36,810 nt of DNA from a virus. The stretch lies in IMG/VR virus record IMGVR_UViG_3300022214_000003. One strand, written 5' to 3'. Of this stretch, positions 4,314 to 36,810 are shown one piece after another (position 1 is the first letter of the stretch; each line of letters starts with the position of its first letter). A program made the translations under genes and the position numbers. The notes beneath the pieces were generated by a model that saw nothing but the letters and a program-made list of their open reading frames with translations, ran no database searches and had not been told where the DNA came from.

Positions 4314-4318
4314 ATGGC

Positions 4319-4813
4319 TTACCCCACATGATAGCGGCGCAGACCGCCATGGTACCAATGGATCAACTCGTCAATATGGTAGGCATAGCGGGCGGCTGCC
4401 TTGGCCTCTAGTTCTGCCCTGGCTTCCGTCAACGCGGTCTCTAGGCGTCGGGGGACTTTAGCACCATACTTGCCCTCGGCCATGGTCTCTGCGATAACTT
4501 CTGCGGCCTGCTCGGCAGGATAATAATAATGGCGCCCGATGCGGCGCCAGGCTTCTTGGACTGGCCAAGAATAAAGGGACTTATACAACATATCGCGGAT
4601 GCGCTTCGAGGCGTCAAAGCGCAAGGCGCCGGGGTACTCTACTACGATGCGATCTGCTAGCTCTGCCACGCTCACCAGCCCCTCCTGGAGGGGAATGCGG
4701 GATACTCTATTGTTGGAACAGTCCTGGCAGAACTTGCGCCGCTTCACTTGGACGGGGCGCTTGCAGGCTTGGCACGGGGGCATCTGTTCTAATAGGCTGT
4801 AGGTCTGCGGCAT
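4319..4813 (-). CDS. Hypothetical protein with N-terminal CxxC..CxxC zinc ribbon
   Basis: The N-terminus contains PPCQACKRPVQVKRRKFCQDC. It is preceded by a 152-nt structured intergenic region. Confidence 0.55.
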   Translation of the reverse strand: MPQTYSLLEQMPPCQACKRPVQVKRRKFCQDCSNNRVSRIPLQEGLVSVAELADRIVVEYPGALRFDASKRIRDMLYKSLYSWPVQEAWRRIGRHYYYPAEQAAEVIAETMAEGKYGAKVPRRLETALTEARAELEAKAAARYAYHIDELIHWYHGGLRRYHVG

Positions 4814-4950
4814 ATCCTGGGCCTTCTCTCCCCTTTGTTGTTGTTACCCCTGGGGAGGGGCCTGTCTGACCTCTCGGCCACCAATCAAGACGCTATGGGC
4901 GATAGGCTTGTGGATGCCGGAGAACCCTCCCCAGGAGCCCTACGGCACAC

Positions 4951-4972
4951 GCCGTAGAGATGGTGCTAGGCG
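4951..4972. repeat. 22-bp direct repeat, copy 1 (GCCGTAGAGATGGTGCTAGGCG)
   Basis: Exact match to 5544-5565. It contains the stop codon of gene 4966-5532. Confidence 0.95.
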
Positions 4973-5532
4973 CATTTCCTGGCCAAATCAATGAGCCACG
5001 AACAAAACGCCGGAGGCGTTAGTTCACGCTCCTGTTTTGAGGGGTGCTTTTGCCCTGTCAGGAGTCGCGCCGACTTAGAAGCAATCACTTTCTCTGGCTC
5101 TCCCATGCAATAAGGGACGGGGGGAATGTTTGATGGCGCGCATCCTACAACGTAGAGCCAAGTCGCTTTGCGGGCGACATGCCCCCACCATTGTTGAGGC
5201 ACGCTCATGGTCCACCCGCCCCATTTATCCCTAGCCCTTGTTCCGGGCCGTGGTAAGCTCAGCGCCTCCCACAACCTGGAATAAGCCGGATGCTCTACGA
5301 CGCCACCCCAACGCCTTGCCTGCTCAATTGCCCATACTGCATAGGCTTTTTCGATGCGCGGTGCGGTGGAAAAATACCGCAGGCGTGACCACAGTCTGCA
5401 AGGCGGATGTGCTATGATTGGCGTACCTCCTGGCCATTGGAGGGCATTCCGTTCCGCGTCCCATACATCTACGCCAGGCACCCCCTTATAATGGCTCTCA
5501 TTATGGGCAAAAAGTACTGCTACCAACTGCAT
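4966..5532 (-). CDS. C5-cytosine-methyltransferase-like protein lacking a recognisable AdoMet motif I
   Basis: IIAHPPCRLWS resembles motif IV (PPCQxFS). GGVVEHPAYS resembles motif VI (ENV). GHVARKATWLYVVG resembles motif VIII (QxRxR). LTPPAFCSWLIDL resembles motif X. The N-terminus reads VAVLFAHNES where FxGxG would be expected. Confidence 0.5.
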   Translation of the reverse strand: MQLVAVLFAHNESHYKGVPGVDVWDAERNALQWPGGTPIIAHPPCRLWSRLRYFSTAPRIEKAYAVWAIEQARRWGGVVEHPAYSRLWEALSLPRPGTRARDKWGGWTMSVPQQWWGHVARKATWLYVVGCAPSNIPPVPYCMGEPEKVIASKSARLLTGQKHPSKQERELTPPAFCSWLIDLARKCA

Positions 5533-11199: not shown

Positions 11200-11364
11200 T
11201 CACACGAATACGCTATACGCCAGCGTGAGGCAGGCCGCGCCGATACAATGCAGGATGCCAGCGCCTACGGCATCGCGCTTGAACGCCTGATGCGCGCCAG
11301 CGAGAGCGCTGGCCATCACGAGTAAATAGGCTAGTGTGCTTACGGTCCATTGCAGGTCAACCAT
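11200..11364 (-). CDS. Small membrane protein (2 predicted TM segments)
   Basis: An AAGGAG SD precedes the ATG at 11364. Two hydrophobic stretches: TLAYLLVMASALAGA and AGILHCIGAACLTLAYSVFV. Confidence 0.5.
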   Translation of the reverse strand: MVDLQWTVSTLAYLLVMASALAGAHQAFKRDAVGAGILHCIGAACLTLAYSVFV

Positions 11365-15057: not shown

Positions 15058-16590
15058 ATGGATCGTGTTTGGCAGGCCACCCTGGCCAATATATCCCGCC
15101 TTTCCCATAAGCATACTACACAAAGTTCTGGTTTATGGCGCCCCCTCCCTTCCACCTATCAGCAATGGTTGCAAACACACTGGCCTGATGATGCACCGCT
15201 TGCATCCTACCACCATGAGTTCTGGGTGCAGGTTTGGCGGTGGCGCCCTGGCGTTGCGGCGCCACCGTTTGTGGCGGTCTGGGCACGGGGGTTTGCTAAG
15301 TCAACCATGGTTGAGCGTGCCCTAATGGCCTGCGCGCAGTTTGGCCTGAGGCGCTATGGGCTCTACGTGTGCGAGACGCAAGGTCAGTCCGATGACCATG
15401 TGGGCAACGTTGCCATGCTGCTGGAGCGTCCAGGATTAGGCATCCAGCGTGCCCTAAGCGCTTACGGGCACAGCAAGGGATGGCGCGGCAACCGGTTGCG
15501 CACTAGCGATGGCTGGACGCTGGATGCGGTAGGGCTTGATACCGCAGCACGTGGGGCCAAGTCGGACGAACAACGGCCTGACCTGATTATCCTCGACGAT
15601 ATTGACGGGGAGAGCGATAGCCCTCTTGTGATCCAGCGCAAACTCGCCACCCTGACCAAGAAAATCCTGCCTGCTGGTAGCGCTGATGTGATCGTGTTGG
15701 CCGTGCAAAATCTGCCCAACAAAGACGGCATCTTTGCGCAACTTGTGGATGGCCGTGCCGACTACCTTGCCGAGCGGGTAGTATCTGGCCCCCATCCAGC
15801 CATCCGGGGCATGGAAGTCGAGCAGGTGCCTGCAGCCGATGGGAAATACCGTTGGCAGATTACGGGCGGCGAGCCCACCTGGCCCTACATGAGCCTGCAG
15901 CGCTGTGCGGATATGCTCAATGTAGAGGGCCTGCGGGCCTTCCGGGTTGAACGCCAGCATGAATACGAGGCACGCGAGGGGGCCTTGTGGCAGCGGGCCT
16001 GGATCGAGCGTAGCCGCGTGACGCAGGCGCCAAAGCTGAGCGCCATCTATCTCGGCGTTGACCCGCCTGGGGGTACGGTGACAGAGTGTGGGCTGATCGT
16101 GGCAGGGCTGGGCATAGATGGGCATATCTATATTATTGCAGATGGCTCGCTAGCAGGCAGTCCTGAGACGTGGGGGAGCCAGGCCGTAGCGTTGGCTGAG
16201 CAGTGGGGCGTGCATGCGGTTCTAGGCGAGGATAACCACGGCGGCGACATGGTGCTCTCTACGGTCCGCGCCGCACTCCAAGGGCGGCCGCGCCGGTGGC
16301 GCTTAGAGAAAGTCCACGCTAGCCGAGGGAAAGCGGTGCGAGCGCAGCCCCTCTCAGCGCTTGCCGAGCAAGGCCGGGTGCATCATGTGGGCCATTTCCC
16401 AGCGCTGGAGGCAGAGTTGTGTGAGTGGATACCTGATGCGGGTATGCCCAGCCCTAACCGGCTGGATGCTGCGGTGTGGGCTACGGCTACTCTGATAGAC
16501 CAGATGCAGCAAGCCAAGCCATCAGAGATCCGTAGCACAGGCCGTAGAGCAAGCGCGTCTGGCCTGGCACGCTTCGCAGGGGGGAGGTAA
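15058..16590 (+). CDS. terL: Terminase large subunit
   Basis: Deviant Walker A ARGFAKST. Walker B DLIILDDIDGE. The C-terminal nuclease-like region contains GVDPPGG..IIADG. I chose the start at ATG 15058, just after the upstream stop. Confidence 0.8.
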   Translation: MDRVWQATLANISRLSHKHTTQSSGLWRPLPSTYQQWLQTHWPDDAPLASYHHEFWVQVWRWRPGVAAPPFVAVWARGFAKSTMVERALMACAQFGLRRYGLYVCETQGQSDDHVGNVAMLLERPGLGIQRALSAYGHSKGWRGNRLRTSDGWTLDAVGLDTAARGAKSDEQRPDLIILDDIDGESDSPLVIQRKLATLTKKILPAGSADVIVLAVQNLPNKDGIFAQLVDGRADYLAERVVSGPHPAIRGMEVEQVPAADGKYRWQITGGEPTWPYMSLQRCADMLNVEGLRAFRVERQHEYEAREGALWQRAWIERSRVTQAPKLSAIYLGVDPPGGTVTECGLIVAGLGIDGHIYIIADGSLAGSPETWGSQAVALAEQWGVHAVLGEDNHGGDMVLSTVRAALQGRPRRWRLEKVHASRGKAVRAQPLSALAEQGRVHHVGHFPALEAELCEWIPDAGMPSPNRLDAAVWATATLIDQMQQAKPSEIRSTGRRASASGLARFAGGR

Positions 16591-18743
16591 TGGCAGAGCT
16601 AGATCGTGGCCAGGTCCAAGGGCCGCAGATCGTTACTATCCAGGACGACCCACGCTATCAATATTATATTGGCCAGATAGCGCTGAACCCGGACCGCGTA
16701 CTCAGGCAAGAGGGGCGGGGTCTGGGCGTTGAACTCTACATGCGGGCGGAAGAGGACGCGCATCTTGCGTCTGTGCTGCAGCAACGCTATCTGGCGACAA
16801 TCGAGCGTGAATGGCAAATCCTGCCAGCGAGCGATGCACCACGCGACCAGGAGATTGCTGATTTTGTTCGGCGTGTACTACTGGCCAGCAACTTTGATGT
16901 GGGGCGCGGGCATCTCCTGCGGGCCATCCATCGAGGCTATAGCGTGTGCGAGCTTGACTGGGGTCTGGACGTAACCGGGGCCATAGCGCTGCGGCAATGG
17001 TGGCCGCGTGCGCCGTATCGCTTTGTCTTTGGCATTGAGGGCGAGTTGCGGGTGCTCACGCGCATACAACGGCTACACGGCGAGGAGGTGCCGCCAGCTA
17101 AGTTTGTGGTCCATACTGTAGGCGATGAGGTCGGAACGCGCTACGGCAAAGGCTTAGGACAAGTTACCTACTGGCTGACCTGGTTCAAGAGAGAACTACT
17201 TAAATTCTGGCTGATCTATGCAGACAAGCACGGCATGCCCACCCCAGTCATTAAATATGATCCACTTATGCCTAACGTTGATGAGTATGTGTCCAAGTTG
17301 CAAGATGCTATTAGCGAGCTACACAGCGAGACAGGGCTACTGATCCCAGGGCTGGATATTGACGTGTCCATCCTGGAGAGCAACCGGCAAGGCGCTAGCG
17401 GCCTCTACGAGGGTTTTGCAGCCTATCTGGACTCCTCGATAAGCAAGGCAGTCCTAACCCAGACGCTTACCACGCAGGAGCAAGGCACGGGATCACTGGC
17501 ACTGGGCGACGTGCATGCCTCAGGGCTCAAGCGCGTGACTAAATCCGATAGCGATGCGCTGGCCGAGACGCTCAATGGTCCTACGGGGCCTATCCATACA
17601 CTGGTAGACTTGAACTATCCAAGCGTGCAGGAATATCCGCAGTATGCTGTGAACTGGGACGAGGACGACAACCTTAATGCTAGAGCTGAGCGCGATCAAC
17701 GTCTAGGCTCGCTGGGGGTGGTATTTACCCAACGCTACATCACAGAGCACTATGGCATCCCAGCGCCAGAAGCCGGGGATGTCGTGCTAACGCCGCAAGG
17801 GCGCACTGCGGGCAATGAGCCGCCTATGTCGTTTGCCGAGGCAGATCGTGCTTTGGCGCGGCGCGTGGCACGAGAGCAGGCGCAACGGCAAATGCTGGAG
17901 GACTTAGCGAGCCCTTTCGTCGGGAGGGCGGGCGCTGACTTTGCCCGTCAGGTGCGGATGTGGGTTAGCCAGCGCAGCACGCTTGATAATGTAGGCGCCC
18001 AGCTTGGCTACTTGGAGACGGCACTAGACCTGGACTTGCTTGGCAATACGTTGTATGCAACTATGCTGCCAGGGCGCTTGTTGGGCTTGGCGCAAGTCGC
18101 TCTCGACAATGGGCCAGCGGCCTTCGCAGCCGTAGAGCCCTTGCCGAGCATTGTGGTGGAGCCGGAGGAAGCACTAGAGTGGTTCCGCGATAAGGTGCCG
18201 CTAAGTGCAGATGCGTACCGCGCCCTTGCAGATGAGGTCAAGTCGTTGGCCTTCGGCATTGCGGGCGTGCAAAACGTGCAAATTGTGGCACTCATCCAGG
18301 CCGCGCTAGAGCAAGCCCTGGCCGAGGGCAGTACGTTCTCGGTTTTCCTGGATCGTATTGATGCGCTGTTTGACGCACAAGCCCCAGGGACAACCCCAGG
18401 GCGGGCGCACCTAGAGAACGTGTTCCGGACGAACCTGCAGAGCGCTTACCAGGCGGGGCGGCTTGAGGGACAACGCCAAGCGGCGGGGCGTAGGCCATAC
18501 TGGCAGTACAACGCCATCGACGATGATCGGGTGAGAGAGTCGCATCTAGCCCAGGATGGCAAGGTCTATCGCTACGACCATCCCTTCTGGGATCGGTGGT
18601 ATCCACCCAACGGTTATCAATGCCGCTGCACAGTGACGACATTGAGCGAGGATGAACTAGGCGAGTTTGGCTTGCAGGTGAGCCAGGCCGATGCGCCCGA
18701 GGCGCCAGACCAGGGCTTTGCAGGGTATCCCAGGGAGGTATAA
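16590..18743 (+). CDS. Portal protein (Mu gp29/DUF935-like) fused to a C-terminal MuF/SPP1 gp7-like minor head domain
   Basis: Size and position match a portal. The C-terminus YWQYNAIDDDRVRESHLAQDGKVYRYDHPFWDRWYPPNGYQCRC matches the Phage_Mu_F signature. Confidence 0.7.
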   Translation: MAELDRGQVQGPQIVTIQDDPRYQYYIGQIALNPDRVLRQEGRGLGVELYMRAEEDAHLASVLQQRYLATIEREWQILPASDAPRDQEIADFVRRVLLASNFDVGRGHLLRAIHRGYSVCELDWGLDVTGAIALRQWWPRAPYRFVFGIEGELRVLTRIQRLHGEEVPPAKFVVHTVGDEVGTRYGKGLGQVTYWLTWFKRELLKFWLIYADKHGMPTPVIKYDPLMPNVDEYVSKLQDAISELHSETGLLIPGLDIDVSILESNRQGASGLYEGFAAYLDSSISKAVLTQTLTTQEQGTGSLALGDVHASGLKRVTKSDSDALAETLNGPTGPIHTLVDLNYPSVQEYPQYAVNWDEDDNLNARAERDQRLGSLGVVFTQRYITEHYGIPAPEAGDVVLTPQGRTAGNEPPMSFAEADRALARRVAREQAQRQMLEDLASPFVGRAGADFARQVRMWVSQRSTLDNVGAQLGYLETALDLDLLGNTLYATMLPGRLLGLAQVALDNGPAAFAAVEPLPSIVVEPEEALEWFRDKVPLSADAYRALADEVKSLAFGIAGVQNVQIVALIQAALEQALAEGSTFSVFLDRIDALFDAQAPGTTPGRAHLENVFRTNLQSAYQAGRLEGQRQAAGRRPYWQYNAIDDDRVRESHLAQDGKVYRYDHPFWDRWYPPNGYQCRCTVTTLSEDELGEFGLQVSQADAPEAPDQGFAGYPREV

Positions 18744-24329: not shown

Positions 24330-24625
24330 GCTGTCGGGAGGCGCACAGCAAGCGGGCGCAAGTCGTCCCATGTGAGACTGACAAGGGCTGTCCTTATAGT
24401 CCCTCGCCAGGGGGCGAAGGACAAGTGGATGAGCGCAACGTGTATGCCTGGTGGGTATGGCAACGGGTGGAGCGACTAGGGAGTAGCGTTTTGTCCCATA
24501 TTGATATGCCAGACGATCCCATCGAGCGTGAGCATCTACTGACCAAGCTGGCCGTGCTGACGGCAAAGGCTGAGACGCACAGAGCCGAGGCACAAGCCGA
24601 AGCACTAAAGGGGCGCCATGGCTGA
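23607..24625 (+). CDS. Tail assembly chaperone, -1 frameshift fusion product (lambda G-T-like, about 339 aa)
   Basis: Codons 1-223 are in frame 0 up to 24275, followed by 116 codons in the -1 frame. These end 8 nt inside the tape-measure gene start. Confidence 0.5.
24269..24275 (+). promoter_or_regulatory. -1 programmed ribosomal frameshift slippery site A_AAA_AAC
   Basis: The zero frame reads CTA AAA AAC (L K N). The -1 frame is open from 24260 to 24625. Confidence 0.6.
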
Positions 24626-27600
24626 GACCGTATCTTTTGCCGTAGACTTTGAGACGAAAACAGCCACCAGTGATGTGCAGGAGTTTGCCCGCGCCACAGA
24701 CGTGGCTTTTGCTACGGTGGAATCGTCGTCCACTGAAGATTTAGGCGCCGTGCAGACGCGGATGAACGTGTTGTCTCTGGCATTCGAGGGGGCCAGCCAG
24801 CGCATCGAGAGCGCCCTGCGCGATGTCATCCGCCAGCAAGGGCAACTTGACGACAGCACACGCCGCAACCAGGGCAGCACGGAGGGCTGGGGCATCAAGG
24901 TGCTGGCCCTTAAAGAGATCTTCTCCACCGCCGCAGAAGCCGTGGGACTCCTGGTGCGGGCTGGCGACCAACTCATCAGGGGTACAACTGAGCAGGTTGT
25001 GCAGACCGACAACTATGCGCGTGCTCTGGGCATCTCGACGCAGAGCCTACAGGGCTATCAGTTCGCTATCCAGCGGGCAGGCGGTGACACGGATGCGCTA
25101 CGCGAAGCCATGCGGACAGCGCAGGAGGCCACAGCCGAGTTTGTCAACGCTGGCTCCGGGCCTGCGGTCGAAGCGTTTCAGATTCTTGGCGTACAGCTTA
25201 CTGATGCCAGCGGGCGTGTGCGGGAGATTGACCAACTCTTCCCTGATCTAGTGCGGTCCCTTGGCAGTGTGAGTGATGAGGCAGAGCGGACCCGCCTGGC
25301 TATCCAACTTTTTGGCGAAGAGGACAGCGTTGTTATTGCCTCGTTGGCGAAAAACCCGGAAGCATTCGACCAGGCACGGGCCGCCGCAGAGCGCTACGGT
25401 GTGACTGTCAGCCAAGACCTAGTTGAGCAATCGCGGCAGTTTCAATCGGGTTTAACCGATGCGCTGGGGGCTCTCCAGGGCCTTGGCAATGAGATCGTTG
25501 AGGCGTTGCTGCCCTCGATCAACGCCCTCCTGCCACAGTTTGCCGAGTGGGTTGCCTCGCTGCGTGAGAGCGATACCGTACAGCAACAGATTATCCCTAC
25601 CCTTGAGACGATCATTGGCTACCTGGGTAACATTGGCACCGCCGTGGAGACGCTGCAGCAACTCTGGCGCGGCCTCAACATTGCGTTTAACCTGGTGGTA
25701 TCGGGCATCCTGGAGGGTGTCGGGTTTATCCTGCAAGGGCTTGGCACGGTGCTTGACGCTGCAGCCAGGGCGGCAGACTTCCTTGGCTTTGAGGGGGTCG
25801 CGGCCAAGGTGCGCAGCGCTGCGCAGGCTGTGAACGAGGTGGGGCAGGAAGCCGACATGCTGGGAGATGCGGCAGCCGAGACAGCCGCAGAGTGGAGCCT
25901 GGCCTTTGAGCGTGCAAACAATAGCACGCAGCAATCCAAGGCCGCCGTGCAGCAGACCACGACCGCCCAGCAAGAGTTGCAACGACAGGCTGCCACGACA
26001 GGCCAGGCCGTGGTAGCGAGCACCCAGCAAGTCACGACCGCACAGCAGCAAGCTCAGGCTGCCACCATCGAACTAAATCGGGCCTACCAGGCGCTGGGCA
26101 TCCAGGGCTCAGACCAACTCAAACTCCTGGCCGACCGCGCCATACAGAACTTTAACCGCATCGAGCAAAGTGGCAAAGAGACGCCAGAGCGCATCCAGCA
26201 AATCTGGGAGCAACAGGTTGTTCCCAAGATCATTGCGGCGTATGGCAAGATCCCGCCAGAGATGGAGCGTATTAACACCGGGGCAGTCAGCGGTCTTGAT
26301 AAGCTGCTTGCCGATCTCGGCATCAAAACGCGGCAGGAGCTAGAGAGCAGCACCGCGACGGCGCGCCAGCAATTGCAACAGATCGTCAGCATCTATGGCA
26401 CGAGCAGCGTTGAAGCGCAGCAGGCGGTAGAGGCCCTGGGCGATAAGGTGGTAGGCGTGCATGGAGAGTTGCCACCAAACATCCAGCGGATCATGGATCA
26501 GGTGAGGCAGGCACACGAAGGGAGTGCCGAGGGTTCTGCATCTGCGCATGAGGATGCCGCAAACCGGATCGGGGATGCGTACCAGCAGGCTGCTATCTCA
26601 GCACGCAATAGCGCAGGGATTATGGCTGCAGGCTGGGGGGAGGTGGAGGGCTCGCTACGCTCCCTGCCAACTACGCTTGAGGGACTGATCGATCTGCAGC
26701 GGACGCTCCAGCGAGAGGCGTTAGAAGCCAACCGAGACCGCAGCGTTTTCGCGGTGGGGCTCGATGAGTTTTACCGCAAGCAAATCGAACAGGTAAACGA
26801 TTTAATCCACGCCAAGCGGGACGAAATGAACGCTAATGGCGAGGTCAGTGAATCGCTACAATCGCTCAATGACCGCATCAATCAGTGGCGCATTGCCTCA
26901 TTGCAGGGTGAGGAGCAGACCCTCCAGACAACGGCAGCCGTACAGGGGCTCAACACGGCCATCACTACCGGGGCAGATGGCATTGCCATGCTGGCTGATG
27001 CCACCATGGCGGCGACGGAGCCAGTCAGAGTGCTGGCGCGCGGGATAGGGGGGCTCGCTCCTGCGATCCATCAGACTGAGACAGCAGCAGAGCATTTAGA
27101 AGGACGTTTATCTGAGGCATTCGCCGTGCTTGGTGTTCAGTCCACAGAAACTTTGAGAACTATGGCAGTAGAGGCCATCCGCGCATTCCAGATAGTGGCA
27201 TCCAGCGGCGTGGAGTCCGGGGAGACGCTTGCTATCATTTGGGCCGAACAAGTTGTCCCTGCCATCATTGAGGGCTACGGCGAACTTCCTCCAGCGTTCG
27301 AGCAGATCAACGACATCGTTTTAAGAGGGGCTAACAATACTTTCACTCTTGTCAAAGATGTGTTAGCCAGGAATCTGAGCGATATGCAGGACGCCTTAGG
27401 GATAGGGGGAGAGGCCGCGATATATTTTGCGGACACCTTGGAAGGGGCAGCCACAGCGACCCGTGTGCTTACCAATGAACTTGACCTGCTGAACAGTGAA
27501 GGCGAAGTCGTCGAGGCCGTAAGCACCAGGGTGGCCCGCAGCGTTGGGGGGATTGGCCAAAGCGCTCGTGATGCGCTTGATGATGTTGCGGCCCTACGGC

Positions 27601-27869
27601 GGGAGCTTATAGACCTTAGCAATGGCCGTATTGGGGGGAATGTGGGCAATGAGTTGCCCAGCCTGGCCCCAGGGCCAACGCCGGGAGGCATCCCGACCAG
27701 TGGACGCCCAGGTCGAGCGCTTACCCCAGGGCCAACAAGTTCAACGTTCCTCTCAGTCGGGCAACTGACTATCCAGTCGCGCGCGGACGAACGATCCGTG
27801 ACTAGCCGCACGGTGGTCGAGGCGTTAAACGAGGCTGCCCGGCGCGGCATCGTGTTGCCTAACAGGTAG
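24618..27869 (+). CDS. Tape measure protein
   Basis: It is 1083 aa and Ala/Gln/Glu-rich helical. Three internal repeats contain YG(K/E)(I/L)PP...(R/Q)I. Position supports the call. Confidence 0.8.
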   Translation: MAETVSFAVDFETKTATSDVQEFARATDVAFATVESSSTEDLGAVQTRMNVLSLAFEGASQRIESALRDVIRQQGQLDDSTRRNQGSTEGWGIKVLALKEIFSTAAEAVGLLVRAGDQLIRGTTEQVVQTDNYARALGISTQSLQGYQFAIQRAGGDTDALREAMRTAQEATAEFVNAGSGPAVEAFQILGVQLTDASGRVREIDQLFPDLVRSLGSVSDEAERTRLAIQLFGEEDSVVIASLAKNPEAFDQARAAAERYGVTVSQDLVEQSRQFQSGLTDALGALQGLGNEIVEALLPSINALLPQFAEWVASLRESDTVQQQIIPTLETIIGYLGNIGTAVETLQQLWRGLNIAFNLVVSGILEGVGFILQGLGTVLDAAARAADFLGFEGVAAKVRSAAQAVNEVGQEADMLGDAAAETAAEWSLAFERANNSTQQSKAAVQQTTTAQQELQRQAATTGQAVVASTQQVTTAQQQAQAATIELNRAYQALGIQGSDQLKLLADRAIQNFNRIEQSGKETPERIQQIWEQQVVPKIIAAYGKIPPEMERINTGAVSGLDKLLADLGIKTRQELESSTATARQQLQQIVSIYGTSSVEAQQAVEALGDKVVGVHGELPPNIQRIMDQVRQAHEGSAEGSASAHEDAANRIGDAYQQAAISARNSAGIMAAGWGEVEGSLRSLPTTLEGLIDLQRTLQREALEANRDRSVFAVGLDEFYRKQIEQVNDLIHAKRDEMNANGEVSESLQSLNDRINQWRIASLQGEEQTLQTTAAVQGLNTAITTGADGIAMLADATMAATEPVRVLARGIGGLAPAIHQTETAAEHLEGRLSEAFAVLGVQSTETLRTMAVEAIRAFQIVASSGVESGETLAIIWAEQVVPAIIEGYGELPPAFEQINDIVLRGANNTFTLVKDVLARNLSDMQDALGIGGEAAIYFADTLEGAATATRVLTNELDLLNSEGEVVEAVSTRVARSVGGIGQSARDALDDVAALRRELIDLSNGRIGGNVGNELPSLAPGPTPGGIPTSGRPGRALTPGPTSSTFLSVGQLTIQSRADERSVTSRTVVEALNEAARRGIVLPNR

Positions 27870-29422: not shown

Positions 29423-29803
29423 ATGGCCTATCCCACATTCTCGCATCCTGGGGTGCCGTTTACGGTCGAGTTTGATACGGGCGTGCTCTCGCCGATGACC
29501 ATCGAGCTTGAAACCAACCAGTCATTTCAACTCTCAGACGACCAGGCCGGGGTGTATGTCTACACCTATGCTGTACCGATGGAGGTGTGGACGCTCCCCT
29601 TTGCCGATGTGCCGACCGCAGATCGTGACCTGATGGTGGCCTTTTTTGGGCACGCCGCCGTCCACTGGCAAGAGAACACGTTTACATTCACGGATGAGTT
29701 ATCACAGGACCACACCATGCAACTGCTCGATAGCCGTATCCAGTTCCAGCATGCGGCTGCTGGGCTGTGGTCCTGGGCTTTGCGACTCTGGAGGCGCGGA
29801 TAG
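29423..29803 (+). CDS. Minor tail protein (lambda gpM-like pattern, tentative)
   Basis: Position supports the call, and the loose pattern ..FF(G)H....F.F.D is present. Confidence 0.35.
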   Translation: MAYPTFSHPGVPFTVEFDTGVLSPMTIELETNQSFQLSDDQAGVYVYTYAVPMEVWTLPFADVPTADRDLMVAFFGHAAVHWQENTFTFTDELSQDHTMQLLDSRIQFQHAAAGLWSWALRLWRRG

Positions 29804-32763
29804 TGTACGCAATCCCGCAGGCATGGTATGACGCGCACGATGGTCCTGGCAAGCAACTGCTTTGCGTGGTGGAGTTCCTGGGGCGTAACATCCATGTCAG
29901 CAACGTGGCCTGGGGGCAGGGCCAGCCGTGGGTGTACGATGCAGGGGCCTACTACGACTCTGACCTGCTCTATGGCGAGGGGCATGCACCCACAGAATCT
30001 ATCCTGCTGTCGCTACGAGGTGGCAGCGTCGAGGGCCTGGAGGTGACGCTGGACTCCTACTCAGGGCTGGCCCAGGTAGCCCAGGTAACGCTGACCATGA
30101 GCAACACGACAGGCGTTGCCGCGCGGCTGGGGAGCGGGGCGGTCAAAAGCTCGGTCCGTATTCTCTTCGGCGTCGGCGGAGTGCTGGGGCATCTGGAACT
30201 TTTGCCGTTGTTCTTTGGGCACATCGAGAGCATCCGGGCCGACTCCCGCACTTGCGTTGTTGATGTCGTGCCGGGGGCATTCGCCTGGCACCATGATCTC
30301 TCGCTCCGTGTGGATCGTGAGACCTTCCCCAACGCGCCGGATGACTCACAAGGGCAAGTCATTCCCATCACCATTGGCAATGCTAGCAACGTGCAAGCCA
30401 TAGCCATCACCAGCACCGTCGCAGGGACGCTGGCCATAGCTGCGGCGGCAGGCGGCACGGTGGTGCATCTGGCCGAGATCGACGCGGGCTTCCCGGCCTC
30501 CGGTGAGATCGTTATTGCTGCGACAACCTACACCTATACGCGCAAGGTCATTACCTACTACAACGACCGTGACGTGCTGTCTCTCTCTGGCTTGAGTCCG
30601 GTCCTGGCTGCGTCCTACATTGTGGGAACGGTGGTAACGCATACCCCTGCTACCTGGCGCTACGCACTGGGGACAGCGGCCATTGTGCGGGCCGTAAAGC
30701 GGGATGGAGCATTGCTGGACCCTGTAGACTACACCGTTGACACGCTGACCGTGAACCAGATCCCTGTGACGCGGGTGAGCATGGCGACTCCTGGCATTAT
30801 CACGGCGGACCTTGCAGGGGCTTACCTACCACAAGAGTCGATTAACCTGGTCAACCCAGGGTTTGAAACCGGCGATACTACCGGCTGGACGATTGTTTCT
30901 GGGACGCTGGACGTTACGACAGGGGAAACGCCTAGCCCTGGGAGTGTGTACAAAGGCGAACTAACAGGCGGCGTTATCCGTCAGACGCTTAACGTGCCAG
31001 GGGGACGGCAAATATGGCTATCGGTTGCGGCCAGAGAGCAGTTTGCTGTGGCAGGAAACGTCCTGAGCCCTACAGGCTGGACTCTCACCTATCAAGCGGA
31101 GAGCACGCCCGCCTTAGATGTAGACTATGGAGCATCAAATGAGCTAGGGCCATGGACTGTTCAAAACCCTGAAGAGTTTATTGGGGCTGGAGAAACAGTA
31201 TGGTATCGGACTATTCATGAACAAGCGTTTACAGTGACGCCTAGCGCAACGTATGTCTTGCGGGCGGGGTTTTTTGAATGGGGGTTAGCAGCTGGGCGTT
31301 TCGTACCAGGGGCAGGGTATACGCCTGTATCACGGGTAACAGAACGCCTAACTATTATCCGGGCCAGTGACGGGGAAATTATACTGAGCGTTCTCGATCC
31401 AATAGTCTTTTTCGTCAATCAAACATTTATTCCGACCGAGACAGACTATATACTAAGGGCTGAAGTCTATAGCTATGGCATAGACTTTCCGCCTTTGAAC
31501 GTTGATGTCATACATCTCACCATAATGTTGCTTGACGCAACTGGCTTTACTACTTTTGCCATCCGCGTGCGCCGCCCAGACCTCAGTGCGTACACGCTCA
31601 CGACGCTCCCTGGGCTTACTGTCCCTGGCACCCCATGGGGCATCCATGTCTATTCTACGATGACGGACGCCGAGGAATCTCAAGCCATCCTGGAAATAGA
31701 GGCAACGCACGACAACCCTGCGATCCCTCTCCCTGTATGGTTTGACGATATTGTTGTGGGTGTTGAGCGCATGCGGCTCCCTGACGCTCCCCTGGGGCCG
31801 GTCGACGCCATCCGGCAAATCATCGAGGCATACGTGCCAGGGTTGCGGATCAATGATGCGCGATTCTCCGCAATGATTCCGCAGCGCTCGCAGTGGTTCT
31901 GCGGTGGGCAATGGCGCAACCCTGGCGACTCCCGCGCCCTCCTGACACATCTGGCCGACCAATTTGCCATGCGCCTGTTCGAGGATGGCGCAGGGCGGGC
32001 CACCCTGGCCCCCATCGTAGGTCAGGCATTGCCTGGGGATGCGGTGGCGGCCTTGGACAGGAGCAACGCCCGTGACTGGCAAATCAGCGACATCGACCGC
32101 TCTCTGCTCTCTACCGACATCTACCTGTACTATGGCCTGCGCCAAGGTGCAGACGAGGACGAGCCGCGCAACTATGGGGGCTTCCTGTTCGCCACCCCGG
32201 AGGCCAGCAACGCGGGGGGGATTTTCCGCTACCTGTGCGATCAGGCTGCCAGGACTTACGGCATGCGCCAGGTGAGGACATACTTTGCCCAGGCGATTTA
32301 CGACCAGGCCACAGCAGCGTTGAAGCTGGCTGACTTGGTAATCCGCCACACGACGCCTACGCGACGGGTCCAGTGCGCTGTCTTAAACCTGCGCCAGGCA
32401 CCCCTGGAGATTGGCGACATTATCACGGTCGAGCACCCGGAACTCCCAGACGGGCCATTTTATGCTGAGGTGTTGCGGGTGGCTCCCGATCTCTCCCTGC
32501 CAGCGATCGAGGTGGCATGCGAGTTGAAAAACTCGACAGCCGACACCAACGAATGGGAGCCGGTGGTATTCCTCGATCTATTCCTGCCTGATGATAACGA
32601 ATGGGATAGCGGGATTGACAGTATCGGCCTGACTGCCAGTGACAACGAATGGGAGCCGCGTGAGTTCGCGGTGGTGGGGACCGATGACCACGAATGGAAC
32701 CCCAGGACATTTACCGATGGCACACCCGATGACCATGACTGGGAAACCGGGCCAGCATTCTAA
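29803..32763 (+). CDS. Large tail-tip/fibre protein with internal CBM4/9-like domain and C-terminal Trp-acidic repeats
   Basis: The GTG at 29803 overlaps the upstream TAG and has GGAGG 8 nt upstream; an alternative GTG lies at 29767. NPGFETGDTTGWT resembles the N-terminus of a CBM4_9 domain. Confidence 0.6.
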   Translation: MYAIPQAWYDAHDGPGKQLLCVVEFLGRNIHVSNVAWGQGQPWVYDAGAYYDSDLLYGEGHAPTESILLSLRGGSVEGLEVTLDSYSGLAQVAQVTLTMSNTTGVAARLGSGAVKSSVRILFGVGGVLGHLELLPLFFGHIESIRADSRTCVVDVVPGAFAWHHDLSLRVDRETFPNAPDDSQGQVIPITIGNASNVQAIAITSTVAGTLAIAAAAGGTVVHLAEIDAGFPASGEIVIAATTYTYTRKVITYYNDRDVLSLSGLSPVLAASYIVGTVVTHTPATWRYALGTAAIVRAVKRDGALLDPVDYTVDTLTVNQIPVTRVSMATPGIITADLAGAYLPQESINLVNPGFETGDTTGWTIVSGTLDVTTGETPSPGSVYKGELTGGVIRQTLNVPGGRQIWLSVAAREQFAVAGNVLSPTGWTLTYQAESTPALDVDYGASNELGPWTVQNPEEFIGAGETVWYRTIHEQAFTVTPSATYVLRAGFFEWGLAAGRFVPGAGYTPVSRVTERLTIIRASDGEIILSVLDPIVFFVNQTFIPTETDYILRAEVYSYGIDFPPLNVDVIHLTIMLLDATGFTTFAIRVRRPDLSAYTLTTLPGLTVPGTPWGIHVYSTMTDAEESQAILEIEATHDNPAIPLPVWFDDIVVGVERMRLPDAPLGPVDAIRQIIEAYVPGLRINDARFSAMIPQRSQWFCGGQWRNPGDSRALLTHLADQFAMRLFEDGAGRATLAPIVGQALPGDAVAALDRSNARDWQISDIDRSLLSTDIYLYYGLRQGADEDEPRNYGGFLFATPEASNAGGIFRYLCDQAARTYGMRQVRTYFAQAIYDQATAALKLADLVIRHTTPTRRVQCAVLNLRQAPLEIGDIITVEHPELPDGPFYAEVLRVAPDLSLPAIEVACELKNSTADTNEWEPVVFLDLFLPDDNEWDSGIDSIGLTASDNEWEPREFAVVGTDDHEWNPRTFTDGTPDDHDWETGPAF

Positions 32764-32774
32764 GGGAGGGCACT

Positions 32775-33458
32775 ATGGCCTTACGCTTCACGCACAACGG
32801 GTATAGTGTCTATACCCACAACACCAGCTTCAACATTGGCGTGACGACAGACGTCTCGCTGGTTATCAACGGCTCCGGCAGTCTGCGCTGCGGCAACCCT
32901 ACGTTTTCGACCAGTTACGCCAATGTGGTAAAGGACGCCACCCCTAACCACCAAATGCAAAGTGGCTTTCTGCGGGCACGGTGGCGCTATACAGACGCCG
33001 CTTACACCAGCATGGACGCTTATCTATTCCTCATATTTCATCAGTCTATAGCGGACATTACAGGCGCATCTGGGAGCTTCAAAGCTGTGGCGTTGCGGTT
33101 GACTGGCACGCAATTGCAATTGATGATTTGCAGCGGCGCAGCAGGGCTCCAGGGCACGATTACCTCACATCAAACGACCGCCCTAGAGGCTATCTCCGGG
33201 GGCTCAATTTACACTACTGCAGCAGAGTTTTTGTATGATGCCTCGTTCGGCGGTACGCAGGTGCGGGCCTGGAAGAATAACAGCAGCACGTTGCCGGATC
33301 GCACTGTGGACCCGCATCAATTGGTGCATGTGTTCACCGGAGGGGCGCCGGGGGCTCTTTCCTGCGGGGAGGCATTCCGCAACACCAAAGTCACGGGGGC
33401 GGATAATATTAAAATGATCGCTGATACGATCCGCAGGCAGGAGCTTACCGCAGCATAG
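32775..33458 (+). CDS. Tail-associated beta-sandwich (ConA/LamG-like?) protein
   Basis: Position follows the fibre gene. The fold guess is from composition only. Confidence 0.3.
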   Translation: MALRFTHNGYSVYTHNTSFNIGVTTDVSLVINGSGSLRCGNPTFSTSYANVVKDATPNHQMQSGFLRARWRYTDAAYTSMDAYLFLIFHQSIADITGASGSFKAVALRLTGTQLQLMICSGAAGLQGTITSHQTTALEAISGGSIYTTAAEFLYDASFGGTQVRAWKNNSSTLPDRTVDPHQLVHVFTGGAPGALSCGEAFRNTKVTGADNIKMIADTIRRQELTAA

Positions 33459-33478: not shown

Positions 33479-33964
33479 ATGGATGCAATGATTGCAGGCG
33501 ACTTTCGTGTTCCTGGCTGTCCAGTCATTCTGATTATTGAAGACGATCGGGCCGTAGCGGAAGCCCTCCGCGCAATTGTGGTATCACGCCTTGTACCTCC
33601 TCCCGCCATCATTCGCGACTATCCCGATGTCGTGCTCGCTCATGCTGCATTGGATACAGGAGAGATGCCTTATCCTGACCTAGTGCTGCTTGACCCTGGG
33701 CTACCGGAGACGCAAGGAATTGAATCGCTACGAGCGTTGTTGCAACATCCTGCCTTGTCTGATGGTGTCCCTATTATCGTGGTGTCGGGGACCATTGCCC
33801 CCGACACGGCGGATGTAATGCTCTCCATGGGGGCTGACGCATATATCCCTAAAGGAACCGAAAACTTTGCAGCCACCCTTATTACAGAGATTTACCGACA
33901 ATGCGCGGAGGCGAGAGAGATCCGGGCGATAGTCCGCCCAGTAGGCAAGGACGGCGACGGTTAG
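33479..33964 (+). CDS. Stand-alone CheY-like response-regulator receiver domain protein
   Basis: ILIIEDD supplies the acidic pair. DLVLLDPGLPETQG supplies the phospho-acceptor Asp. IIVVSG supplies the conserved Ser/Thr. DAYIPKG supplies the conserved Lys. No output domain is present. Confidence 0.75.
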   Translation: MDAMIAGDFRVPGCPVILIIEDDRAVAEALRAIVVSRLVPPPAIIRDYPDVVLAHAALDTGEMPYPDLVLLDPGLPETQGIESLRALLQHPALSDGVPIIVVSGTIAPDTADVMLSMGADAYIPKGTENFAATLITEIYRQCAEAREIRAIVRPVGKDGDG

Positions 33965-33969
33965 GGCTC

Positions 33970-34311
33970 ATGGAGGAGGCCTTAAAGCATGAGCGTGTCC
34001 AACTGTGGCACGCCGAGCGTAACAATGGGGTGATGCTGGCTGCCATAGAGGCGCGGCTTAACATCATGGATCGTGACCTAGAGGAGTCACGCCAGCGGCT
34101 CTCCAGGCTAATAGATGGGGGAGAGGGGGCCCCTTTGGCGGTGCGCCTCAACAATCTAGAACGTGACATCCGTGATGCCAATGGCGCACTACAAGGGATG
34201 CGGGATAGGCACGCTGAGCGCATCAAGGGCGGGTGGATTCTTGGCACGGCTCTGGTGTCTGGCCTGCTGGGGCTTATCGGAACAGTCCTAACCCTGATCT
34301 TCAAGAAGTAG
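33970..34311 (+). CDS. Coiled-coil protein with a single C-terminal transmembrane anchor (XhlA-like architecture)
   Basis: An N-terminal helical, charged region is followed by GGWILGTALVSGLLGLIGTVLTLIFKK at the C-terminus. Confidence 0.5.
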   Translation: MEEALKHERVQLWHAERNNGVMLAAIEARLNIMDRDLEESRQRLSRLIDGGEGAPLAVRLNNLERDIRDANGALQGMRDRHAERIKGGWILGTALVSGLLGLIGTVLTLIFKK

Positions 34312-34319
34312 GAGAACTC

Positions 34320-34835
34320 ATGCGCTACATCTCCCTGGCCTTGCTTCTTATCGCAGCTATCGCCATGGCTCAGCCTGCACGGGGGCGCCTCGCTATGGCA
34401 ACGCTAGGTGGCAACGGTGTGCTCAGCGTGCGATTTCTTGACGGGCCGCCCGTCGACGCTGCGGCGCAGTACGAGTTAAGCGCCAAGGCTACGACTACTT
34501 GGCTCTGCCTGCGGGCGACAGATAATGCCTGCCCGGCAGCCCCAGGGCTGCGTAGCGTTAGCAGCACAGAGTTGCTGACTAGCAGCACTCTGAAGCCGTT
34601 GCCGGATAGTGCCGCAAATGTTGCCGCAGGCACCGCAGGGCTTATCAGTAGTACGCTGTCGCTAGGGCCTCCTGAACTAGATGAAGACGACTTTGATGCG
34701 TGCCCGGATGGGCAGCAGTGGGCGCTAGGCGAGGTGGTCTATGAGCGCATCACGCTGCGCAAAACCGCCGACAAGGAAGGCACCGTGTTGCAGCCGCAGC
34801 GGCTCGGAGTAAGGTATCATTATTGCGTGGAGTAG
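34320..34835 (+). CDS. Secreted or signal-anchored Cys-containing protein
   Basis: N-terminus MRYISLALLLIAAIAMAQP. It has 4 Cys and no lipobox. Confidence 0.5.
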   Translation: MRYISLALLLIAAIAMAQPARGRLAMATLGGNGVLSVRFLDGPPVDAAAQYELSAKATTTWLCLRATDNACPAAPGLRSVSSTELLTSSTLKPLPDSAANVAAGTAGLISSTLSLGPPELDEDDFDACPDGQQWALGEVVYERITLRKTADKEGTVLQPQRLGVRYHYCVE

Positions 34836-34838
34836 AAC

Positions 34839-34997
34839 ATGGGCGATGATGTTGCGAAGCAAGCAAGCGCGTATGGCAAGTGCCCTATTTGCGGTGGGGC
34901 TGTGGCGACAAGGGAGAGGCGCCCGGACGGGAATGATTGTTGCGAGAATGGGCATATCTACCCGTCCGCAGATGCTGTTATGGTAGACGAAAAATAG
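34839..34997 (+). CDS. 52-aa zinc-ribbon protein (below the ORF-track cutoff)
   Basis: My own translation gives MGDDVAKQASAYGKCPICGGAVATRERRPDGNDCCENGHIYPSADAVMVDEK*. Confidence 0.45.
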   Translation: MGDDVAKQASAYGKCPICGGAVATRERRPDGNDCCENGHIYPSADAVMVDEK

Positions 34998-35152
34998 AGT
35001 CTATGAGGAGCTAATTGCTATGCTGGAGCGGCAGGACTGAATCTGCTATACTCTCCCACGGGTGGCAACCGGATTGCAACCGGGGCCGGGTCACGACGGC
35101 CACGCCGCCCTACCTCTTACGTGACGCTCACCCGTGACATGAGGAGCTAGCC

Positions 35153-35935
35153 ATGTCGCAACTGATCCCTTTCCAGTTTGAAGCTCACGCTATTACAATT
35201 CATCTTGATGAAGCGGGGCAGCCCTGGTGGGAAGCGCAAGATGTCTGCGTTGTCCTTGGCATCCGTGATGTCTCCAAAGCAGTAGCAAGGCTGAAGCTCG
35301 GAGAGAAACGCACGAGTGAAAGTCGGAACGTATTGATTATTAACGAGAAAGGGCTGTATCGTCTTATCATGCGGAGCAACAAGCCGGAAGCTGAGCGCTT
35401 TCAGGATTGGGTCTTTGGCGAAGTCCTCCCGCAGATCCGCAAGACCGGACAGTATATTCCGAAGCCTTCCGCCTTGGATGCCTTCCCAGAGATGCGTGCC
35501 ATGGTTGCGCTGATGGAGAATGTGGCAGAACAGCGTCTTATGATTGAGGAGATGCGCGAAGCCCAGCGCCAACAAGATGCCAAGCTCATAGCCACACAGC
35601 AACAAACCATCGAAGCCCTGCAGCAATCCCAGCGTGCTGACGCCAAAGCCGACATGGCGCTGGATGAGGCGCGGCGCATGACGCTGGAGGATTTTGTCTA
35701 CAGCAACGGGCTTGCCAGGCAACTCCCGCTCACGCCGCAGGCCATAGCAGGCTACGTCACGTTCTTGGCAGAGTTCTGTCAACACTTTGGCTTGCCCTAC
35801 GATAAGGAGCCAGTCTACGGCAAGCAATGGCGCAAAGAGAATACCTATCCAGTCCCAGCCTTGACAGCGCTCTTGCGCCATGAGACGCACCGTCCCCGCC
35901 AGATCCGGCTGTACCGGCAGCAGGAGGAAGGGTAG
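35153..35935 (+). CDS. BRO-N domain protein (antirepressor-like)
   Basis: FQFEAHAITIHLDEAGQPWWEAQDVCVVLGI..INEKGLYRLIMRSNKPEAERFQDWVFGEVLPQIRKTGQY is a clear Bro-N pattern. A GAGGAG SD is present. Confidence 0.8.
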   Translation: MSQLIPFQFEAHAITIHLDEAGQPWWEAQDVCVVLGIRDVSKAVARLKLGEKRTSESRNVLIINEKGLYRLIMRSNKPEAERFQDWVFGEVLPQIRKTGQYIPKPSALDAFPEMRAMVALMENVAEQRLMIEEMREAQRQQDAKLIATQQQTIEALQQSQRADAKADMALDEARRMTLEDFVYSNGLARQLPLTPQAIAGYVTFLAEFCQHFGLPYDKEPVYGKQWRKENTYPVPALTALLRHETHRPRQIRLYRQQEEG

Positions 35936-35939
35936 GGAC

Positions 35940-36810
35940 ATGCAGCCGCTGCGCGCTCCATTCCCCTGGTTTGGCGGGAAATCCCGCGCCGCCGATCTTA
36001 TCTGGCAAGCCCTCGGCGATGTGCCGCACTATATTGAGCCATTCGCAGGCTCACTAGGCGCACTCCTGGCACGACCGCATGCGCCGCATGTCGAAACGAT
36101 CAATGACAAAGATGCGTATATTTGCAACGTGTGGCGAGCGCTAGAGGCTGATCCTGATGCGGTTGCACGGTGGGCAGACTGGCCGGTCAATGAGAGCGAC
36201 CTGCATGCCAGGCACGCTTGGCTGCGCCGTAGAGAGGGCATCCTGCGCGAACGTGTAGAGGGTGATCCTTTCTACTACGACGCGCAGATTGCCGGGTGGT
36301 GGCTGTGGGGTATCTCGGCATGGATAGGCAGCGGGTGGTGCGATGCCAATACCGTAGGGCCATGGGTGGTGAGCATGGACAATGATGGCTACCCCGTGCT
36401 GCGGCGAGAGAATGCAGGCATGGGCGTCAGGCGCAAACTCCCGCACCTTTGGGGTCCAGGCAAGGGCGTCAATCGCAAGCGGCCGCACCTTAGCAGGCCG
36501 GGCATGGGAGTTTCATCGATTGACAGGCCAGGCCTCCCAGTCTATTTCCGCGACCTACAGGCGCGCTTGCGTGGCATCCGGGTATGCTGTGGGGATTGGC
36601 AACGCATCCTGGGGCCGACAGTCCTGCAAGCCAGCGGCATGGCCGGGGTGCTGCTTGACCCGCCCTATAGCCATGAGTTGCGAGACGCTGGCATATATGC
36701 GCAGGAGAGTGCAGACATTGCGGCCGATGTGCGGGAGTGGGCCATTGCTCATGGGGATGACCCCATGCTACGAATTGTGCTGTGTGGCTACGAGGGGGAA
36801 CACATTATGC
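35940..36810 (+). CDS. DNA N6-adenine methyltransferase (Dam-like, alpha group), N-terminal part; open at the window end and continues at 128-279
   Basis: My own translation from ATG 35940 gives FPWFGGK, EPFAGSLG (motif I) and LLDPPYS (motif IV). The full gene is 340 aa on the circle. It is missing from the ORF track because it has no stop inside the window. Confidence 0.8.
   Translation, partial: MQPLRAPFPWFGGKSRAADLIWQALGDVPHYIEPFAGSLGALLARPHAPHVETINDKDAYICNVWRALEADPDAVARWADWPVNESDLHARHAWLRRREGILRERVEGDPFYYDAQIAGWWLWGISAWIGSGWCDANTVGPWVVSMDNDGYPVLRRENAGMGVRRKLPHLWGPGKGVNRKRPHLSRPGMGVSSIDRPGLPVYFRDLQARLRGIRVCCGDWQRILGPTVLQASGMAGVLLDPPYSHELRDAGIYAQESADIAADVREWAIAHGDDPMLRIVLCGYEGEHIM
36684..36810. 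repeat. Terminal direct repeat, copy 2 (identical to 1-127)
   Basis: Same comparison as for copy 1. Confidence 0.97.

Follow-up and report, generated by a model that had tools for sequence, protein, structure and literature searches.

Stand-alone CheY-like receiver genes have been described in a few phages of Alteromonas. In the myovirus V22 and the schitovirus A5, which share a host-recognition module, such a gene lies after the tail fibres among small hypothetical neighbours and was classified as a 'class II AMG' (auxiliary metabolic gene), the gene order being tail fibre, chaperone, a hypothetical protein of 122–125 aa, the CheY-like protein of 147–149 aa and then proteins of 136–158 aa and 87–92 aa (PMC7289586, PMC10579305). 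The autographivirus R8W was reported to carry a 'PhoB' AMG (PMC8228385). No link to lysis genes is mentioned in any of these papers (PMC7289586, PMC10579305, PMC8228385), and the words 'holin' and 'endolysin' do not occur in the V22 paper. Here we analyse a cluster of four small genes, headed by a stand-alone receiver gene, at positions 33479–34997 of the IMG/VR virus record IMGVR_UViG_3300022214_000003, a stretch of 36,810 nucleotides which is referred to below as the window. The author of an earlier note on this DNA knew of no described phage system of such a composition, a statement which proves too strong in view of the published V22, A5 and R8W loci (PMC7289586, PMC10579305, PMC8228385).

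Further records of Alteromonas phages bearing a receiver (REC) gene were found by tblastn and their neighbouring genes were examined. Each of these RECs is a stand-alone protein whose gene is located on the strand of the tail genes or adjoins them. Six lineages are represented, the V22-like myovirus, the A5 schitovirus, the V19 schitovirus, the PB15/XX1924 siphoviruses, the R8W/H4 autographiviruses and the R9Y1-3 siphoviruses, and in each of the six the gene directly 5' of the REC encodes a single-pass membrane protein with a long helical domain. The two genes are separated by 0–2 nt or overlap by 4 nt, except that in PB15, where the REC start is uncertain, the gap is up to 17 nt. The helical domain of these partners is predicted to be cytoplasmic, either from the positive-inside rule for those with an N-terminal transmembrane (TM) segment or from tail anchoring. 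Moreover, recognisable lysis genes lie at most two genes from the REC in five of the six lineages, with V19 as the exception. The gene orders are as follows:

A5: tail fibre, chaperone, gp10 (N-terminal TM plus helical domain), REC, gp12, gp13 (two TM), gp14 (annotated endolysin)
V22: papain-like amidase, ORF29 (TM plus helical domain), REC, ORF31, ORF32 (two TM)
PB15/XX1924: 4-TM protein, 101-aa tail-anchored helical protein, REC, endolysin (PB15) or DUF5675 protein (XX1924), holin
R8W: tail fibre, holin (phrog_1356, 7e-14), gp47 (TM plus helical domain), REC (gp48), gp49, small terminase
R9Y1: tail fibre, gp13 (TM plus helical domain), REC (gp12), Glyco_hydro_108/PG_binding_3 endolysin (5e-24), gp10
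V19: gp11 (TM plus helical domain), then the REC-like protein, with tail-related genes alongside

The gene directly downstream of the REC encodes an Rz-like spanin of phrog_4297 both in A5 (gp12, 3e-8) and in V22 (ORF31, 7e-6), and the V22 block is kept in two IMG/VR relatives in which REC identity falls to as low as 46%. The PB15 endolysin belongs to Peptidase_M15_3 (phrog_894, 1.6e-31), the holin that forms the last gene in PB15/XX1924 is of the GTA_holin_3TM type (phrog_3427, 2.6e-40) and the tail-anchored helical partner in PB15, gp79, matches phrog_937 'hemolysin' (1.8e-16). The helical partners with an N-terminal TM segment in three of the lineages form a small family, listed here together with the receiver-like gene of V19:

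R8W, 10143–10439: N-terminal-TM helical partner
R9Y1, 3139–3504: N-terminal-TM helical partner
V19, 3227–3508: N-terminal-TM helical partner
V19 (OP751378), 3498–3950: REC-like protein, acceptor Asp lost by a 3-residue deletion, Ser/Thr and Lys replaced

None of these three partners has a Pfam match and the R8W member, which was also scanned against PHROGs, has no match there. A C-terminal L..MHL.NQR motif is common to those of R8W and R9Y1; it contains a His that is conserved between these two but not aligned in V19. The RECs of the same two phages are 47% identical to each other.

The window cluster consists of the following genes:

33479–33964, + strand: REC161, receiver protein of 161 aa
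33970–34311, + strand: CC113, helical membrane protein of 113 aa, with the ATG start derived from the sequence
34320–34835, + strand: SP171, signal-peptide protein of 171 aa, with the ATG start derived from the sequence
34839–34997, + strand: Zn52, putative zinc-ribbon protein of 52 aa

Gaps of 5, 8 and 3 nt separate the four open reading frames (ORFs), in agreement with the spacing of 3–8 nt given earlier, and REC161 begins 20 nt after the stop codon of the preceding gene, that of a 227-aa protein (p227). The coding assignments on the + strand are borne out by codon usage: when codon log-likelihoods were computed with the phage's own structural genes as reference, the annotated frame scored best for all four ORFs and three of them were phage-like, the short Zn52 scoring weakly. 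Three of the four ATGs are preceded, at 4–6 nt, by a Shine-Dalgarno-like GGAG or AGGAG. The GC content of the cluster resembles that of its flanks, and recent foreign insertion of the cluster was rejected for want of any GC anomaly.

REC161 matches the Pfam family Response_reg (PF00072) over residues 17–127 with 47.9 bits (cut-off 30.2) and an expect value (E) of 1.7e-12, and a phmmer search of the PDB yielded 27 receiver domains at E<1e-3, the best being Brucella CtrA (E 1.4e-6). In alignments with CtrA, KdpE and MtrA the canonical positions are occupied by the acidic pair (E21-D22-D23), the acceptor D72, S103, the switch residue Y122 and K125. The earlier note had named a profile search showing no receiver fold, or no acceptor Asp, as what would overturn its assignment; that search, in Pfam and by alignment, gave a receiver with D72 aligned. 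No output domain was found in Pfam, NCBIfam or PHROG, the NCBIfam response-regulator families match the REC part only, and the ORF ends at the TAG at 33962–33964, so that the receiver is extended by 16 aa at the N-terminus and by about 20 aa beyond alpha5. As judged from these profiles and alignments, REC161 is a true stand-alone receiver with every phosphotransfer residue present, much as had been proposed for a 161-aa protein with five such residues and no output domain. D22, D72, S103, Y122 and K125 are kept in REC161 and in six of the seven Alteromonas-phage RECs compared. Two atypical details can be read from its sequence, a Pro at D+1 and a Gly at K+1 where Pro is usual, and its GC content at third codon positions (GC3) is 0.51 as against ~0.63–0.67 in the neighbouring genes. 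No cognate kinase gene was found for it in the phage genome.

In an index of 5.8 billion proteins REC161 retrieved itself alone, and in a HMMER search of 1.84 billion representatives it was a singleton at 50% identity, with generic RECs of at most 37% identity as the next best matches. When the four best cellular matches were checked for domains, two proved to be multi-REC hybrid histidine kinases and two multi-REC proteins. Identity to the Alteromonas-phage RECs is 27–38% over 38–93 residues, no better than to cellular RECs; the nearest of these matches is 34% over 73 residues (R8W/R9Y1), while V22/A5 are matched at E ~1e-5. Because REC161 resembles the RECs of the Alteromonas phages no more than it does cellular ones, the layout of a REC beside a membrane-anchored helical protein probably arose in the window phage independently of that in the Alteromonas phages.

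CC113 carries a single hydrophobic segment, scored as a TM helix at about residues 89–111, at its extreme C-terminus, where only KK follows (hydropathy scan), and the AlphaFold model consists of two long helices, 2–49 and 53–111, at a predicted local distance difference test score (pLDDT) of 78.6. On this model the protein is tail-anchored and its helical domain of ~87 residues must be cytoplasmic. It had been described as a coiled coil with a C-terminal TM anchor; the long helical character and the tail anchor stand, while a true coiled coil is plausible rather than demonstrated. No family match was obtained in Pfam, PHROGs, NCBIfam or PADLOC (best PHROG E 0.34; no XhlA in Pfam at E<=1), a Foldseek search of BFVD with the model gave 0 matches, and neither BLASTP nor hhalign detected homology to any Alteromonas partner. 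An end-to-end colinear alignment with PB15 gp79, at 26% identity, is not significant (BLASTP E 0.46, hhalign probability 1.4%). In size (about 100 aa) and topology (a helical domain at the N-terminus and one TM segment at the C-terminus), CC113 fits the XhlA-type/phrog_937 pattern, and its architecture is exactly that of PB15 gp79 and XX1924 gp58. An i-spanin assignment was rejected, the TM segment being C-terminal with two residues beyond it and not N-terminal with a periplasmic coiled coil to follow.

The window cluster shares two features with the Alteromonas modules, a REC directly after the tail genes on the late strand and an adjoining gene for a single-TM helical protein, and lacks two others, homology of the REC or its partner beyond the generic and a recognisable lysis gene at most two genes away. 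Drawing on this analogy we suggest, with a probability of about 0.4, that REC161 and CC113 constitute a regulatory pair on the cytoplasmic face of an unrecognised late membrane/lysis module. The observations on which this builds are the domain identity of REC161 and its intact phosphorylation site, the topology of CC113, the tight packing of the genes and the pairing of a REC with a membrane-anchored helical protein in the lysis cassettes of other phages. Moreover, the cluster sits at the canonical lysis position behind the tail fibres, and of the four membrane or exported proteins encoded on the late strand two belong to it. Among the functions envisaged in the earlier note, lysis timing gated by a host signal has become the best supported on account of the position in the Alteromonas lysis cassettes, an argument which proceeds by analogy only.

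In such a scheme REC161 would be made late in infection and D72 would be phosphorylated by a host donor, whether acetyl phosphate, a histidine kinase or a phosphorelay Hpt protein. Its phosphorylation state would govern the binding of REC161 to the cytoplasmic helical domain of CC113, and this binding would shift when, or whether, the membrane lesion that starts lysis is formed; SP171 could be a downstream envelope effector and Zn52 an accessory. A bolder version, which we consider unlikely, is that a REC together with a membrane-anchored helical protein makes up a new kind of regulator of phage lysis, an antiholin or holin activator gated by phosphorylation, and that this module originated or was acquired on at least two occasions, in the Alteromonas phages and in this orphan high-GC phage.

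The main rival to the lysis reading, itself somewhat unlikely, is that REC161 is an independent host-takeover gene (an AMG or moron), which acts alone on host two-component signalling as a phosphate sink or decoy, its three neighbours being unrelated late genes co-located for co-expression at the end of the late operon. This would accord with the publication of the Alteromonas homologues as 'class II AMG' (PMC7289586, PMC10579305, PMC8228385). The origin of the nearest cellular matches in multi-REC hybrid kinases fits the mimicry of a phosphorelay receiver, the lower GC3 of REC161 hints at a separate origin, and whole two-component cargo is found after the tail genes of other phages, for example Stenotrophomonas phage Bhz63 (OR797046), where a full-length PhoP-like response regulator and then a kinase-like protein are encoded at 3501–5047, after tail and methyltransferase genes. 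However, an independent cargo gene does not readily account for the packing of a REC against a membrane-anchored helical protein, often with overlapping codons, across very different phage families. The V19 protein is a pseudo-receiver without the acceptor Asp, Ser and Lys and cannot be a phosphate sink, and yet its upstream TM-plus-helical partner gene is kept, with codons overlapping. Because this pseudo-receiver retains its membrane partner, the comparison speaks for partner binding rather than phosphate draining as the core activity, which phosphorylation would modulate.

CC113 could also be viewed as a component of phosphotransfer itself, either a phosphatase of CheZ/Spo0E type or a minimal Hpt/DHp-like hairpin, forming with REC161 a membrane-tethered phosphorelay node. 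CheZ, Spo0E and Hpt/DHp proteins have a general shape of long helices, as has CC113, whose two predicted helices contain His residues in helical context (KHER, WHAER, RHAERIKGG), and the conserved His of the R8W and R9Y1 partner motif points the same way. Nevertheless, CC113 has no HisKA, Hpt, CheZ or Spo0E profile match, and the proposal amounts to a pure pattern reading of short motifs in low-information helix, with a His that does not align in V19, so that we regard it as very improbable. The CC113 sequence was also read for the DxxxQ and ExxN motifs of the CheZ/CheC type, and with no convincing match these were rejected.

The N-terminus of SP171, MRY-ISLALLLIAAIAMA|QP, has the positive n-region, hydrophobic h-region and AxA site of a Sec-type signal peptide (MRYISLALLLIAAIAMA|QP). 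Read from the sequence, its cleavage-type site is A-M-A|Q, and the hydropathy peak is 1.86. There are exactly four Cys and no lipobox, so that the N-terminal signal or anchor segment and the Cys count reported earlier for this 171-aa protein were both recovered from hydropathy and sequence. As it has no lipobox Cys, an o-spanin assignment was rejected. SP171 has no homologue but itself in 5.8 billion proteins, no family match in Pfam, PHROGs, NCBIfam or PADLOC and no PDB match, and its single-sequence AlphaFold model, at a pLDDT of 42, is unusable. Zn52 shows a CPIC...CCENGH motif, with Pfam DUF5679 and Zn_ribbon_RlmA matched at E 0.05–0.1, below thresholds; the CxxC..CC..H motif noted previously is present, the profile matches to a zinc ribbon are sub-threshold, and the protein is a putative zinc ribbon by its motif alone. 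An exact look-up in a collection of 15 billion proteins placed REC161, CC113 and Zn52 in singleton clusters and, by these searches, all four cluster proteins are sequence orphans. The suggestion that the four genes form one functional unit is not supported, since only the pair of a REC and a single-pass helical membrane protein recurs elsewhere and neither SP171 nor Zn52 has a counterpart or homologue in any search; the unit is unproven.

Two further proteins, encoded on the same strand as the cluster, bring the late-strand membrane or exported proteins to four:

293–1087, + strand: signal-peptide protein of 264 aa, no family match, after the Bro-N and Dam-like methyltransferase genes
1100–1441, + strand: signal-peptide protein of 113 aa, no family match, at the very end of the late strand

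A module for envelope remodelling or superinfection exclusion would draw on several of these proteins. CC113, anchored in the inner membrane, and SP171, taken as a periplasmic or secreted, disulfide-bonded protein, would alter the cell surface or block DNA entry, and REC161 would switch the module according to host state. A membrane protein next to an exported Cys-containing protein without an enzymatic signature would suit this function, as would the two additional signal-peptide proteins that end the same strand, and sites downstream of the tail fibres are a common location of moron and exclusion genes in lambdoid phages. On the other hand, no integrase or other lysogeny module was detected in the genome scans, which makes exclusion expressed from a prophage less likely, PADLOC gave no defence or exclusion family match for the cluster, and the analogous RECs of the Alteromonas phages lie among lysis genes, A5 moreover being described as strictly lytic (PMC10579305). 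On balance an exclusion function is quite improbable.

Counting in favour of a role of the REC161–CC113 pair in an unrecognised lysis module, no endolysin, holin or spanin was recognisable genome-wide when essentially all ORFs were scanned against Pfam and PHROG. CC113, SP171, Zn52 and p227 have no lysis-family match in Pfam, PHROGs or NCBIfam; and no ORF with a lipobox in a real gene frame occurs anywhere in the genome. By size and topology only, there are two candidate holins, CC113 with one TM segment and a small ORF at 11200–11364 on the - strand, of ~55 aa from an internal Met, which encodes two hydrophobic helices and lies in the opposite-strand early/middle block.

Several considerations weigh against the proposed lysis function. 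The ORF at 11200–11364 could be the real holin. REC161 is the only protein of the cluster to match any known family, the link to lysis being made by architecture and position, and SP171 bears no enzyme signature. Single-pass membrane proteins abound in lysis cassettes, which makes mere adjacency a poor indicator of interaction. The Alteromonas modules are known to be transferred horizontally as whole blocks (PMC10579305), and because of this movement the six lineages do not represent six independent cases. Moreover, the gene order is reversed in the window, where REC161 precedes its putative partner. Finally, the literature search yielded no experiment on any phage REC, and no paper on receiver-controlled or phosphorylation-based phage lysis.

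The window itself is, by assembly evidence, a complete, circularly assembled phage genome of 36,683 bp, because its ends (1–127 and 36684–36810) are identical over 127 bp and three independent assemblies of ~36.7–36.8 kb (Logan SRR7133727, ENA ERZ27296438 and JGI 3300021961) match it at 100% identity. Upstream of the cluster, the + strand carries genes for a large terminase, a portal fused to a minor head domain, a protease, a major capsid protein and a tape-measure protein, and REC161 lies at the end of this structural-gene strand. The features located in this part of the genome include:

16590–18743, + strand: portal protein of 717 aa with a C-terminal minor-head/DNA-pilot (Mu F/SPP1 gp7-like) fusion, phrog_113 and phrog_220
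24618–27869, + strand: tape-measure protein
29803–32763, + strand: distal tail/host-recognition protein of 986 aa, after the tape-measure protein, closing the recognisable structural module
32775–33458, + strand: p227, 227 aa, placed by position between the 986-aa tail protein and REC161
34998–35152: intergenic gap of 155 nt, closing the tightly packed run and preceding the Bro-N/Ant-like gene
35153–35935, + strand: Bro-N/Ant-like gene

The sole homologue of the 986-aa tail protein is 29% identical and is encoded on a 5.5-kb contig, with a faint CBM_4_9 match. The label 'tail fibre' for the genes upstream of the cluster follows from their position after the tape-measure protein and from this one distant CBM_4_9-bearing homologue; p227, for which Pfam, PHROGs and NCBIfam gave no family match, is possibly a tail fibre or fibre accessory protein. 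On the contig with the homologue (JGI 3300041966) a reverse transcriptase gene (RVT_1 and GIIM) precedes it, which could be part of a group II intron or of a diversity-generating element adjoining a receptor-binding protein. The 155-nt gap shows no significant RNA structure (z = -1.1) and no consensus terminator or promoter above background, and the Rfam and tRNA scans were empty. Antisense to the Bro-N/Ant-like gene, and spanning almost all of it, is a 264-aa ORF at 35147–35941 (- strand, codon score +0.125) that is probably a shadow ORF. A 188-aa protein encoded at 4966–5532 on the - strand matches phrog_12600, of unknown function, at E 7.8e-64, shows a weak DNA-methyltransferase-like match and a PPC motif, and is conserved widely among phages.

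Searches for relatives of the phage were largely negative. Relatives of the major capsid protein, at 35–41% identity, were found in IMG/VR contigs and in prophages of metagenome-assembled genomes from Desulfobacterota, Brocadia, Nitrospiraceae, Bacteriovoracaceae and Anaerolineales, none of which shares the tail or cluster genes. Scans of IMG/VR with REC161, the tail protein, the XX1924 REC, the PB15/XX1924 REC and the XhlA-like partner of the latter gave nothing, a scan with an alignment of the V22/A5 RECs gave V22-like contigs only, and metagenome scans with CC113 and a 381-aa tail protein gave nothing. Neither blastn nor tblastn against INPHARED revealed a phage related to the window phage. 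REC matches in INPHARED were mostly to unannotated contigs or to very large records filed as phages (Listeria, Staphylococcus and Acinetobacter MD-2021a), these last being presumed bacterial DNA, and in the one Pseudomonas REC-bearing record filed as a phage that was examined, the REC lies in the host flank. As far as these searches extend, the lineage is a singleton with no relative close enough to show co-occurrence of the four genes.

The known controls of lysis timing comprise holin-intrinsic clocks, antiholins and lysis inhibition of the T4 type. If a receiver does couple host signalling to the lysis decision, this would constitute a new means by which viruses gauge host physiology, and it would join arbitrium and the phage-encoded quorum-sensing receptors. 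With phosphorylation-gated lysis, phages could follow the two-component, phosphorelay or acetyl-phosphate state of the cell and time lysis by it. The window demonstrates that the layout of a REC with a membrane-anchored helical protein also occurs outside the Alteromonas phages, and it provides a complete phage genome whose entire lysis machinery eludes current family libraries. The idea of a role in lysis is directly testable, since several of the Alteromonas phages that share this layout have been cultured.

Amongst cellular proteins, the closest parallels to REC161 are the single-domain response regulators CheY, Spo0F, DivK, CpdR and Rcp1, which have the same domain and conserved residues with no output domain and which act by phosphorylation-dependent binding to a partner protein. 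REC161 differs from them in being phage encoded with no cognate kinase gene, in its identity to cellular proteins of at most ~37% and in having Gly, not the usual Pro, at K+1 and Pro at D+1. With respect to lysis, the T4 antiholin RI with its holin T, and the XhlA/XhlB/XlyA system of PBSX, provide cases where the timing of lysis is altered on a signal by an accessory protein bound to a holin-type membrane protein. XhlA is a small tail-anchored helical protein of the lysis cassette, to which CC113 gave no Pfam match, and RI acts in the periplasm, where it senses superinfection; neither system is known to use a receiver domain or phosphorylation. By analogy, REC161 and CC113 may work like RI with holin T or like XhlA/XhlB/XlyA. 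Among phage proteins, the cREC of jumbo phages has a divergent receiver fold, never linked to two-component signalling and tied to NAD+/ADP-ribose systems (PMC7824862). Both are phage proteins of receiver fold, but REC161 belongs to the classical PF00072 and has no NAD+/ADP-ribose neighbours.

The Alteromonas phages thus provide the nearest counterparts. Like the window phage, V22 and A5 carry a REC (147–149 aa) after the tail fibres, packed with small membrane proteins and with its phosphotransfer residues kept. In contrast to the window, where the partner lies downstream, their partner has an N-terminal TM segment and sits upstream of the REC, the neighbours are an Rz-like spanin, a 2-TM holin-like protein and an endolysin, and host GC is ~38–45% as against ~57% here. 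The R8W/H4 phages, which are T7-like, and the R9Y1-3 phages, from another siphovirus lineage, both stand apart from the window phage and show the order tail fibre, (holin), single-pass helical protein, REC and endolysin or holin-like protein, with 4-nt overlaps; judging from their domain content, the label 'PhoB' is wrong for the RECs of both groups, which have no DNA-binding domain. The nearest architectural match is PB15/XX1924, in whose genomes of ~37–40 kb the late operon ends with a lysis cassette that includes a tail-anchored helical protein and, next to it, a REC labelled 'response regulator', although there the order is partner, REC, endolysin, holin, the partner belongs to phrog_937, which CC113 does not, and the endolysin and holin are recognisable. 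On present sequence comparisons, the window cluster is a sequence-unrelated version of a known, functionally uncharacterised phage gene arrangement, which would become considerably more interesting if the link between receiver and lysis proves general.

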